A DNA stretch of 32,000 nt, taken from contig JAWOFX010000032.1 of assembly GCA_046497275.1 (NCBI GenBank), forward strand, positions 5,569 to 37,568, in the 5' to 3' direction. Source of the DNA: Promethearchaeia archaeon (GTDB lineage: Archaea; Asgardarchaeota; Lokiarchaeia; Sigyniarchaeales; SOKP01). The notes under the pieces were generated by a model, which saw only the letters and a program-made list of their open reading frames with translations, was not told the origin of the DNA and did no database searches. A program made the position numbers and the translations under genes. The number at the start of each line of letters is the position of its first letter. The first letter of the stretch is position 1. This document shows positions 6,041 through 29,007 of the stretch, piece after piece.

Positions 6041-7610
6041 ATGAGATTAAAAGTAAAGAAAATAAATTTTGAAACAGGTAATACAAAAGATATCGTTTTA
6101 AATCATAGAGATGCTGCCAAATTGGGCCAGAAAGCAGGAGAAAGAGTGAAAATCACTAATATGGCTAGCGACAAATTAAATGATAGATATTGGATTGCGA
6201 TTATTCAAATTGCACATTCAGACTCAATATTATCTAGTGGAGAAATTGGAATTTTTGTTAATACATTAAGAGATCATGAAGAATTAAAGGAAAATAATGA
6301 AGTTTCTGTAAAACCAGCAGAATCGCCGGATTCCTACAAGTTTATAAAAAAGAAAATAAATAGAGAGAAATTGAGTGGAGATGAAATAAATAGAATAATT
6401 AAGGATGCCGTTTCAGGGAGTCTGTCCAAGATAGAACTCTCTTCATTTATTACAGGTATTCATATTAATGGGATGGATAACGAGGAAATGACCGCTTTAA
6501 CTCTAGCAGAATCAGAGAGTGGAGAGAAATTTAACTTTGGACCGGAAGTCTTTGATAAACATAGTACATAAGTTTACAGAATTGTAAACTTAGCTAAAAG
6601 GTGGAGTTCCGGGCAACAAAGTTTCTCTGATAATTGTTCCCATTGTGGCTGCGGCAGGATTAACAATTCCAAAAACCAGTACAAGGGCAATTACTTCTCC
6701 TTCTGGAACTGCAGATTCAATGGAAGTACTAGCACCAGTGACTTTTACTTCAGAGGAAGTTGAAGAAATAATCTCTAACTTGAAAGCCTGTATAATTTGG
6801 GGAGGCAGTCTTGACATTGCTCCCGCAGACAGTGTTTTAATAGAAGTTGAACGTCCATTACATTTTGATCCGATTGGGTTGATGATACCATCTATTTTGG
6901 CAAAAAAACTCTCGATGGGTGTTAAAAAAATAGTATTAGATGTACCTGTCGGGGAAGGAACGAAATTTAAAACTCCTATGGATGGAAAAAAATTCGCTCA
7001 TCTTTTTAAGCAGATAGCAGATAATGTAGGGGTGGTTGCTGATTGTGCTCTCACTTTAGCTCATCAACCGATTGGTCATTGTATCGGCCCTGCTATAGAG
7101 GCCCAAGAAGCTTTAACATTGTTGCGTGATTATGCCGCGGGACCAAATTCTCTAATTGAGAAATCAACGTCTCTAGCGGGAATAATCTTAGAAATGGGAG
7201 GAAAGGCGAAGCCTGATGAGGGGCAATTAATGGCTAAAGAAATATTAAGATCAGGAAAAGCTTATAAAAAGATGAAAGAAATTATTGAAATACAAGGTGG
7301 TAATCCAGAAATTACTCCCGAAGAGATAAAATTAGGACCGCATAAAAAAGAGTTTTATTCAAACAAATCAGGGCATATTACAGAAGTTGATAATTCGATA
7401 ATAAATCAAATTGCGAAGGCAGCTGGATGTCCTTATTCTAAAACCTCAGGAGTTCAGATTTATAAAAAGCAAGGTGCTATGGTAAAGGAAGGAGATAAAA
7501 TATTTACAATTTATTCCAGTAGTAATACTAAACTAAAACGTGCAGAAAAAATCTATAATAGAACTGGTGGACCTATCATTCTTGGAGGAATGCTTATTGA
7601 AAGAATATAA
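6041..7610 (+). CDS. deoA: AMP phosphorylase (thymidine phosphorylase family, archaeal type) encoded in two parts: join(6041..6567,6599..7610), 512 aa if the 31-nt insertion is removed
   Basis: Part 1 ends ...KIELSSFIT...EEMTALTLA...VFDKHST. Part 2, in another frame, resumes GGVPGNKVSLIIVPIVAAAGLTIPKTSTRAITSPSGTAD...APADSVLIEVERPL...SILAKKL...DVPVGEG. The joined DKHSTGGVPGNK is the family's conserved motif. Confidence 0.93.
6568..6598 (+). other. Candidate 31-nt bulge-helix-bulge-type mRNA intron
   Basis: Perfect 10-bp stem TAAGTTTACA-GAAT-TGTAAACTTA (6569-6592), 4-bp central helix TAGT/GCTA (6562-6565/6593-6596), and 3-nt bulges ACA (6566-6568) and AAA (6597-6599). Cutting after the second nt of each bulge gives AGT ACA GGT GGA (S-T-G-G) in frame. 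Confidence 0.82.
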
Positions 7611-27642: not shown

Positions 27643-29007
27643 TTAGACTGAGCTAAATTCCGTTTTCTTCGTTCCGAAGAGTCCTAAAGAAACACCAAGC
27701 TCGTGAGCATTTTTTTCTTTTGCATATTCTTTTACTGATATTCCTTGCATTGCAGCATCGATTGCTTGTCGGAAAGCTTTTGCCCCCGCGATAGGTCCTT
27801 CGGGATGGGCATGAATACCTCCACCGCTACCAATCATTATATTAGGACCAAGATCATTCATTATCTTCTCGACTAATGCGGGTGTTATTCCTCCACTAGG
27901 CATTGGCATTGTTCTTTTGATATGTGGTGCATTACGCATAGGCATAACGAGATTTCTCGCCACCTCTTTAAATTTATCTGCCATAGTAGGTGCTTTTCCA
28001 TATGGTGCTGGTTGAACAATAGTATCACATCCAGCTAATCTGCTAAATTTACCCAATATTATAGGACTACTAACTCCTCCCCATGGATCTTGATAGAGAG
28101 TTCCAGCAAAATCCATATGTCCTAAAATAGGCACCTTTACTGAAGGATCCTCAGCAAGTTTTCTCATGGCAGAATACCCTACTGAAATATGATTGACCAT
28201 TAATGCATTTGCGCCGTTTTCTTGTGCGATATCAGCTAATTCAAACATTCTATCTACTCTATCAGTAATATTTACAGTATATAATGTTTTCTCTCCCTTT
28301 TCTTCATCAGCACGGTCAAGGGCTTCCATAAATTGCGTAACTCGTTCATCTAAAGGATTAAAACCTACATCTGCGATTAATTCATCGTCTTTAATAACAT
28401 CACATCCCCCTACAGCGGCTTTATATGCTAATTCAGCAGCGGGAGTTTCACTTAGTGTATAAACACAAGGCTTAATCATATTATTAAGTAAAGGTCTTTC
28501 TGGAACACCTAATATTTTCCTAATTCCTTCATCGCCGAATTTTGGACCTTTAAACTCTTTTAAGAATTCTCTTGGGAATCTTACATCCACCATTTTAAGA
28601 GGACCTCCCATAGAAATATTTCCAAAAATAGTTGTAAACAACATTGGGAATTGAGGTTTAAAATTTAAAGGATAAGCAACTTGTACTACCCAATCTCTAT
28701 ACTTCGGATTATCAAAAAAATCTTCTACACCTTCATATTCATAATCTGGTACTGACCAGAGCCCAATTACTTTCGCAACATGCTTTCGTCTAGTTTCTGG
28801 TGTCTCAGCTGGAACTGCTACGAATGTTCCTGTTGATTGTTCAATACATAGTGATTGTGTCATGTAAAATGCGTCCATTTTTCGATGAAGCTTTGCGATA
28901 TAAGTCGCAATAATATGGGTCTCATAGTCGATATCTTCAGGAAGTGCATTAGGTTTACTTAAATTATCTAAGTCAAATTTGTCAAACTGATCTGGTAATT
29001 TAGACAT
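27643..29007 (-). CDS. RuBisCO-like protein (form IV)
   Basis: EQSTGT, GPKFG, IKDDE (carbamylated Lys motif), SGG and GGGIHAHP are present. It has MIKPCVY and GHMDFAG where carboxylating RuBisCO has IKPKLG and H-R-A-x-H. Confidence 0.88.
   Translation of the reverse strand: MSKLPDQFDKFDLDNLSKPNALPEDIDYETHIIATYIAKLHRKMDAFYMTQSLCIEQSTGTFVAVPAETPETRRKHVAKVIGLWSVPDYEYEGVEDFFDNPKYRDWVVQVAYPLNFKPQFPMLFTTIFGNISMGGPLKMVDVRFPREFLKEFKGPKFGDEGIRKILGVPERPLLNNMIKPCVYTLSETPAAELAYKAAVGGCDVIKDDELIADVGFNPLDERVTQFMEALDRADEEKGEKTLYTVNITDRVDRMFELADIAQENGANALMVNHISVGYSAMRKLAEDPSVKVPILGHMDFAGTLYQDPWGGVSSPIILGKFSRLAGCDTIVQPAPYGKAPTMADKFKEVARNLVMPMRNAPHIKRTMPMPSGGITPALVEKIMNDLGPNIMIGSGGGIHAHPEGPIAGAKAFRQAIDAAMQGISVKEYAKEKNAHELGVSLGLFGTKKTEFSSV

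Follow-up and report, generated by a model that had tools for sequence, protein, structure and literature searches.

A candidate bulge-helix-bulge intron in the AMP phosphorylase pre-mRNA of an Asgard archaeon

In eukaryotes, the mRNAs of HAC1 and XBP1 undergo an unconventional cytoplasmic splicing, which is carried out by the Ire1 endonuclease together with a Trl1/RtcB ligase. Among archaea, the closest described system is reportedly the intron with a bulge-helix-bulge (BHB) motif in the pre-mRNA of the crenarchaeal pseudouridine synthase gene cbf5, said to have been described by Watanabe in 2002, Yoshinari in 2006 and Yokobori in 2009. To our knowledge, it is essentially for crenarchaeal cbf5 alone that mRNA splicing of this protein-only kind has been demonstrated in archaea. 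Here we describe a stretch of 32,000 nucleotides from a Promethearchaeia archaeon (contig JAWOFX010000032.1 of assembly GCA_046497275.1, C171:5569-37568 in our own numbering, hereafter the window), in which the gene for AMP phosphorylase is interrupted by 31 nucleotides at positions 6568-6598. As argued below, these nucleotides are very probably a real BHB pre-mRNA intron spliced through an endonuclease, they lie in the sole AMP phosphorylase gene of the genome, and the enzyme could almost certainly be produced only after its mRNA has been cut and rejoined. As a kind, the element is known, being a BHB pre-mRNA intron of the cbf5 type, and it is the gene and the phylum that are new for that kind. 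In a full-text literature search that reached few subscription journals, we met with no paper on BHB introns in the mRNAs of Asgard archaea, nor on an intron in AMP phosphorylase.

With the cbf5 intron, the present insert shares predicted cuts that directly follow the second base in both bulges, and a location among the codons of a catalytic or active-site motif. There are also clear differences, starting with the host gene, an AMP phosphorylase of nucleotide salvage in the phylum Asgard/Promethearchaeota, and with the fact that this intron is one of several candidate mRNA introns in its genome. The cbf5 intron sits at the catalytic Asp codon of its gene, whereas the cbf5 of the source genome (C32:3568-4512; L062) is uninterrupted, matching TIGR00425 positions 6-319 in an open frame of 336 amino acids that contains no stops. 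Moreover, the splicing of cbf5 was shown by complementary DNA and by cleavage in vitro, whereas that of AMP phosphorylase is inferred from sequence. The mRNAs of HAC1 and XBP1 offer a more distant parallel: in both cases the process would be independent of the spliceosome, an endonuclease would cut at two stem-loop sites, a tRNA ligase would join the ends, and the removal of a short intron would change the reading frame. Ire1, in contrast, is not a homolog of the archaeal tRNA splicing endonuclease EndA, recognises a different motif and acts within a regulated stress response.

A third related group is that of the non-canonical BHB introns of pre-tRNAs in TACK and Asgard archaea (PMC5829648, PMC3241643, preprint 10.64898/2026.10.13.758758), which carry the same motif, presumably depend on the same enzymes and fall in the same size range. 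The recent preprint on Asgard introns (10.64898/2026.10.13.758758) treats tRNA genes only. Unlike a pre-tRNA, an mRNA host has to make the exon half of the motif from codons, and its synonymous positions are thereby constrained. No sequence relative of the AMP phosphorylase intron was detected among the pre-tRNA introns of the source genome, where a covariance-model scan returned the intron itself and one match with E = 1.5 beside tRNA-Ala(CGC). The hairpin sequence was likewise found nowhere else in this genome, either by exact search or allowing 3 mismatches, and with only self matches there is no evidence for a sequence-related donor intron or a repeat family. Across the whole source genome, ARAGORN made 26 tRNA calls, 14 of them with an intron; several of these calls are doubtful, and the sounder introns measure 19-31 nucleotides. 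Many tRNA genes of this genome were probably missed by the program owing to non-canonical or multiple introns, as in the same preprint. Within the window, ARAGORN found no tRNA.

The anatomy of the interrupted gene is simple (Table 1). The frame that opens at the ATG at 6041 reads GAT AAA CAT AGT ACA TAA at 6554-6571, and the unspliced RNA could encode only a fragment of 176 amino acids. In comparison with TIGR03327, the NCBIfam equivalog model for AMP phosphorylase (cut-off, 535 bits), the N-terminal half (6041-6568) covers profile positions 1-165 (E = 3.5e-35, 121.5 bits) and the C-terminal half (6600-7607) positions 167-500 (E = 1.1e-134, 449.7 bits). The two halves abut with no part of the profile missing, and together they score 571 bits, which is above the cut-off; in a family-model search they were the sole AMP phosphorylase matches in the source genome (G000). 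Removal of 6568-6598 leaves 527 + 1009 nucleotides, or 512 codons, that read DKHS-T-GGVPGNK across the join and restore DKHSTGGVPGNK, and the predicted spliced junction, with 6567 joined to 6599, would be CAUAGUAC-AGGUGGAG. The minimum free energy (MFE) fold of 6536-6620 is exactly the BHB structure (-24.1 kcal/mol, z = -3.55), a stability that 1 out of 200 shuffled sequences equalled, and the 51-nucleotide core adopts the same fold (z = -3.53; 0 out of 200 shuffles as good). The central helix, H, consists of three Watson-Crick pairs and one G-U in the source gene. The first-pass annotation of this DNA, made from the sequence alone, had described the insert with its 10-bp stem, its TAGT/GCTA helix and its ACA and AAA bulges, as well as the restoration of S-T-G-G in a 512-codon frame, and all these features were found as it had placed them.

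A gene broken in this way might instead be read as a split gene, whose two separate polypeptides (residues 1-176 and a C-terminal piece) assemble into the enzyme, and the conservation of both halves as open frames fits such an idea. The first in-frame start of the C-terminal half, however, is the GTG at 6645, some 15 codons past the junction, from which the invariant GGVPGNK would be lost; a start codon is not conserved at the junction, the break falls inside the phosphate-binding motif, and the covariation of the BHB helices described below would be left unexplained. We thus regard a two-piece enzyme as very improbable.

Table 1. Window coordinates of the AMP phosphorylase gene, its putative intron and the elements of the predicted BHB motif
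Feature	Position	Strand	Remarks
Exon 1, AMP phosphorylase	6041..6567	+	codons 1-175 and the AC of Thr176; TIGR03327
Putative BHB intron, 31 nucleotides	6568..6598	+	in-frame TAA at 6569-6571, frame shifted; homologous inserts in relatives
Exon 2	6599..7610	+	third base of Thr176, then GGVPGNK onward; stop codon 7608-7610
Central helix H, 5' strand UAGU	6562..6565	+	exonic: third base of the His codon and the Ser codon
Central helix H, 3' strand GCUA	6593..6596	+	intronic
5' bulge ACA	6566..6568	+	predicted cut after C6567
3' bulge AAA	6597..6599	+	predicted cut after A6598; A6599 completes the Thr codon
Intron hairpin h'	6569..6592	+	10-bp stem 6569-6578/6583-6592, GAAU loop 6579-6582; MFE folds
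Minimal exon helix h, 5' strand AC	6559..6560	+	partner 6601-6602; A6561/G6600 opposition between h and H
Minimal exon helix h, 3' strand GU	6601..6602	+	alignment pairing
Distal exon pairing CCGGAA/UUCCGG	6542..6547 with 6607-6612	+	in the MFE fold of the source genome

In the mechanism that we propose, the exonic UAGU of the transcript would pair with the intronic GCUA to form the 4-bp helix H, flanked by two 3-nucleotide bulges on opposite strands. With the 10-bp h' on one side of H and the weak 2-bp h on the other, this would be a near-canonical, slightly relaxed motif of the HBh' type. EndA cuts either bulge behind its second base (PMC2738675), and here it would do so between the C and the last A of ACA and between the second and third A of AAA. 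The exons would then be joined by RtcB, the 31-nucleotide intron would probably be circularised, and the mature mRNA, encoding ...DKHS-T-GGVPGNK..., would be translated into an enzyme of 512 amino acids.

In an alignment of 14 sequences (A1), 97.1% of the cells of H, h' and the 2-bp h are paired, both sides have changed in 10 out of the 15 pairs, and none of 500 column shuffles reached the observed values, whereas sliding the partners by 1-3 columns lowers the pairing to 26-43%. A second set of 16 further sequences, which lay outside the derivation of the structure and which were retrieved with the covariance model and are hence biased toward it, gave again 97.1% of paired cells. Helix H is paired in 100% of the cells of both alignments, which together hold 28 distinct orthologous sequences, and 3 (A1) and 4 sequences, respectively, have C-G in place of its U-A pair at the wobble base of the His codon; in the three sequences of A1, a synonymous CAU to CAC change in the exon is matched by an A to G change in the intron. 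The nine conserved pairs of h' are paired in 96.8% of cells in both sets, with changes on both sides in 8 of the 9 (A1), and compensations not present in A1, for instance UUUAC/GUAAA to CCUAU/AUAGG, appear in the second set. Both H and h' are recovered unaided by RNAalifold. The comparison of orthologs that had been proposed along with the first-pass annotation, for presence or absence of the insert and for compensatory stem changes, thus came out in favour of the intron, since both helices co-vary.

The minimal exon helix h shows a more modest conservation. Its C6560-G6601 pair (25:66) is C-G in all 14 sequences of A1, and A6559-U6602 (24:67) co-varies, being A-U in 10 of them and G-C in another 2, with the remaining 2 unpaired; among the orthologs whose junctions were inspected, the Lys and Gly codons could pair through their third bases in 25 out of 30 intron-bearing genes vs 8 out of 23 intron-less ones. 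The first-pass annotation had looked for the exon helix further out, in the pairing of CCGGAA with TTCCGG. This distal helix does occur in the MFE fold of the source genome, but we rejected it as an element conserved in the motif, with 77.8% of its cells paired and a register that differs in some orthologs; the inner 6559-6560/6601-6602 pairing is better supported.

Constraint reaches also the codons that form the motif. The 5' bulge is ACA in 28 and ACU in 2 of the 30 inspected copies, and the 3' bulge ends in A, G, U or C in the relatives, so that the spliced codon is always ACN, that is, Thr. The Ser codon that lies within H belongs to the AGY family in 30/30 intron-bearing genes vs 9/23 of the intron-less ones, the rest of which use TCN (Fisher p = 3e-7, uncorrected for phylogeny). 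These data bear on a further possibility, a translational recoding in which the RNA remains uncut and ribosomes bypass the 31 nucleotides, in the style of gene 60 of phage T4, or hop from ACA to GGU. A stop directly follows ACA in the source gene and a stable hairpin begins there, in an arrangement loosely like a take-off site. A matching landing codon, however, is missing, because the triplet before GGN is mostly AAA, otherwise AAG, AAU, AUU, ACU or AAC, and only rarely ACN. Most copies of genus g11 lack a stop right after ACA, and neither the conserved 4-bp helix between exon and intron, nor the two 3-nucleotide bulges, nor the covariation at the His and Ser codons would find an explanation in bypassing, to which we give scarcely any credit.

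The insert is not a peculiarity of the source genome. A family-model search of 60 relatives revealed that many orthologs are about 30 nucleotides longer and have internal stops, or are split at profile positions 165/167. In the 37 orthologs whose junctions were read, 14, from 9 genera, carry an insert of 29-31 nucleotides between the Ser codon and GGN, at the identical site, and the other 23 read Ser-ACN-GGN with nothing between. A covariance model built from the BHB motif (R1) and run over 135 genomes of the source family found matches in 36 of them, one per genome and distributed over 10 of the 13 genera, and gave no match in 24 genomes from six sister families of the same class. From the 30 inserts that were inspected, 25 are 30 nucleotides long with in-frame stops, 3 have 31 nucleotides and 2 have 29, so that stops or a frameshift make every one of the 30 copies unreadable through. 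The spliced frames of all the intron-bearing orthologs, in contrast, are open over 510-540 codons.

Such a distribution speaks against an error of assembly or sequencing. The source assembly is certainly of the metagenome type (3.85 Mb in 188 contigs, 98.9% completeness and 4.4% contamination), but dozens of genomes, independently assembled in different projects, share diverged homologous inserts at this site, which makes an artefact the least credible of the explanations considered, with a practically negligible probability. The closest public relatives of the gene come from metagenome-assembled genomes (MAGs) labelled Promethearchaeota (Asgard archaea, Lokiarchaeia type), in agreement with the Asgard-like host that had been suggested from the letters of the window.

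The same data can be confronted with the idea of a pseudogene, in which a small palindromic element has inserted itself and the hairpin is a relic without function at the RNA level. The insert does bring a stop codon and a frameshift, and hairpins of such strength are common in the AT-rich source genome, where 1391 structural candidates were counted. Nevertheless, the insert persists at one site in 36 genomes and 10 genera, compensatory changes keep its helices paired, and the gene is the only copy in the source genome. In the 14 intron-bearing genes, the proportion of synonymous differences (pS) is saturated, with medians of ~0.70-0.73, and the median ratios of nonsynonymous to synonymous differences (pN/pS) of exons 1 and 2 are 0.35 and 0.21, respectively. 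Both open exons are, by this measure, under purifying selection, and low pN/pS at saturated pS means that both halves have been kept as coding across a divergence so large that an unconstrained 30-nucleotide hairpin would have decayed. We consider a pseudogene highly unlikely. The first-pass reading of the segment as a BHB intron, on the other hand, is backed by the inserts at the same site, the compensatory changes, the constraint on the exons, the purifying selection, the precise losses that are described next and the presence of EndA and RtcB in the host.

When the intron state is mapped on a maximum-likelihood tree built from the spliced proteins, 7 changes are required, of which well-supported branches force at least 5, and a single clade (29 sequences, 98% support) contains every intron-bearing gene. 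The intron-less alleles read exactly AGY/TCN-ACN-GGN, that is, a precise deletion at the predicted junction. Because the inserts are alignable with one another, the simplest history would be a single gain, close to the root of one Promethearchaeota family, followed by several precise losses. Losses that are exact to the base at the junction are what would be expected from replacement by a spliced copy, an argument already made for cbf5, whose patchy distribution has been explained in like manner by one gain and precise secondary losses (PMC2738675).

Some side observations concern the same gene family. In genera g2 and g11 (G007, G019, G025, G026), the intron-bearing gene of G007 (Ser AGT) groups in the gene tree with the intron-less genes of G019 (TCA) and G026 (TCG), and this switch of Ser codon family between close relatives would rather suggest that the region was replaced, by gene conversion or laterally, than that the intron was simply deleted. 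Several genomes of the sister family f2 hold two full-length AMP phosphorylase genes without the intron, in tandem or close to each other (G044:C1:3143743-3147900, G037:C45, G055:C1:5423513-5426673), as opposed to the single, interrupted gene of the source genome. The orthologs of genus g8 (G036, G013, G030, G023; L037-L040) and family f7 (G059, G060) match the profile only from position ~80-85 and have merely 84-96 open codons upstream of the junction, their N-terminal domain being absent or separated; that of G036 has, besides, one TAA within the profile match.

The source genome also encodes the expected enzymes. It has two EndA paralogs of ~200 amino acids each. The first, alpha (L041 1168-1773), retains the catalytic Tyr, His and Lys and aligns without gaps with the alpha subunit of Aeropyrum pernix (3p1z_B, E = 3e-38), including the K-P-R of the Crenarchaea-specific loop (K59, R61). 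The catalytic His is absent from the second paralog (L042 1216-1818), as expected for a structural beta subunit. In A. pernix, this loop, with its Lys44, enables the enzyme to cleave introns that lie at non-standard positions as well as relaxed bulge-helix-loop motifs (PMC3241643), and an (alpha-beta)2 EndA carrying that loop has been reported in Asgard archaea (PMC5829648). The host EndA is hetero-oligomeric, as in the hosts of the cbf5 intron. Together with two intact genes for the RtcB ligase, these features indicate a host equipped with an RNA ligase and with the kind of EndA that accepts relaxed motifs.

Several observations weigh against a spliced intron. Beside the 3' bulge, exon helix h amounts to no more than 2 bp, set off by an A/G opposition, and 2 of the 14 sequences of A1 leave it unpaired; for that reason the motif is classed as a relaxed HBh' and not as a strict hBHBh'. 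The genomes compared are MAGs and related to one another, so that simple counts overstate their independence. In a genome of 30.4% G+C, the BHB motif by itself is weak evidence: a strict genome scan for BHB motifs combined with fusion of open reading frames gave 5-8 matches vs 2-12 in frame-shifted controls, which is no enrichment, and a loose version was swamped by junctions between genes. The strict scan, which had been proposed from the outset as a way of finding frameshifted genes with the same geometry, did recover three candidate introns, those of AMP phosphorylase, RNA polymerase A' and a UbiA-family gene, but yielded no excess over the controls; it is without statistical power and unusable for counting introns. 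The significance of the AMP phosphorylase intron therefore rests on the comparative data and not on the motif alone.

The other two genes agree with the early suggestion that this intron might be one of more hidden introns, as both carry like inserts. The gene for RNA polymerase A' (G000:C83:1644-1673; L064:345-374, +) is single-copy and has one internal TAA, contained in a 30-nucleotide insert located between GHFGH and IELARP; its halves match the Pfam domain RNA_pol_Rpb1_1 at positions 2-73 and 74-312, abutting, and the insert folds as a BHB with a GGGC/GCCC central helix, an AUA bulge and a 9-bp stem. Since RNA polymerase A' is indispensable, inserts of this sort must be removable from the mRNAs of the organism, and the same genome would in any case have to splice introns of this kind. 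In a UbiA-family prenyltransferase (C111 ~36425-36457; L065:727-756, -), a BHB-shaped insert of 30 nucleotides is found at NDIYDVEID-K-INRPERPIP, and the pieces match profile positions 3-48 and 53-231. A strong hairpin of 31 nucleotides with BHB geometry at C156 ~56179-56212 (L066, -) was set aside, because the Pfam domains at its sides do not abut and may belong to adjacent genes. It is flanked by a 500-codon frame with FAD_binding_4 and a 406-codon frame with Fer4/CCG, and could be either an intron in a fused gene of the GlcD/GlcF type or the boundary between two neighbouring genes.

A RuBisCO large-subunit homolog lies in the window at 27706-28524 (-; C171:33274-34092; PF00016, E = 1.2e-41), 21 kb from AMP phosphorylase, and a stronger homolog is present on contig C130 of the source genome. 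A partner of the AMP/ribose-1,5-bisphosphate salvage pathway is therefore present, which is consistent with the AMP phosphorylase.

A gene of this sort has practical consequences for annotation. Gene callers would report it as two fragments or as a pseudogene, and metabolic reconstructions of these Asgard genomes would mistakenly leave out AMP phosphorylase from the AMP/ribose-1,5-bisphosphate/RuBisCO salvage. That the intron links nucleotide salvage to the activity of EndA is a speculation. Taken together, the putative introns of AMP phosphorylase, RNA polymerase A' and UbiA indicate that Asgard archaea may depend on mRNA splicing for core functions, and they raise the questions of how splicing is reconciled with coupled transcription and translation, whether gene expression might be controlled by intron removal, and how introns are gained and precisely lost. 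Our view leans, with some reserve, towards BHB mini-introns of ~30 nucleotides regularly interrupting the protein-coding genes of Promethearchaeota and other Asgard archaea, even single-copy essential ones such as that for RNA polymerase A'. If this is true, the prokaryotes most closely related to eukaryotes would use mRNA splicing by EndA and RtcB routinely, and possibly for regulation, when they express their genes, and many of the Asgard "pseudogenes" in current annotations would be intact genes.

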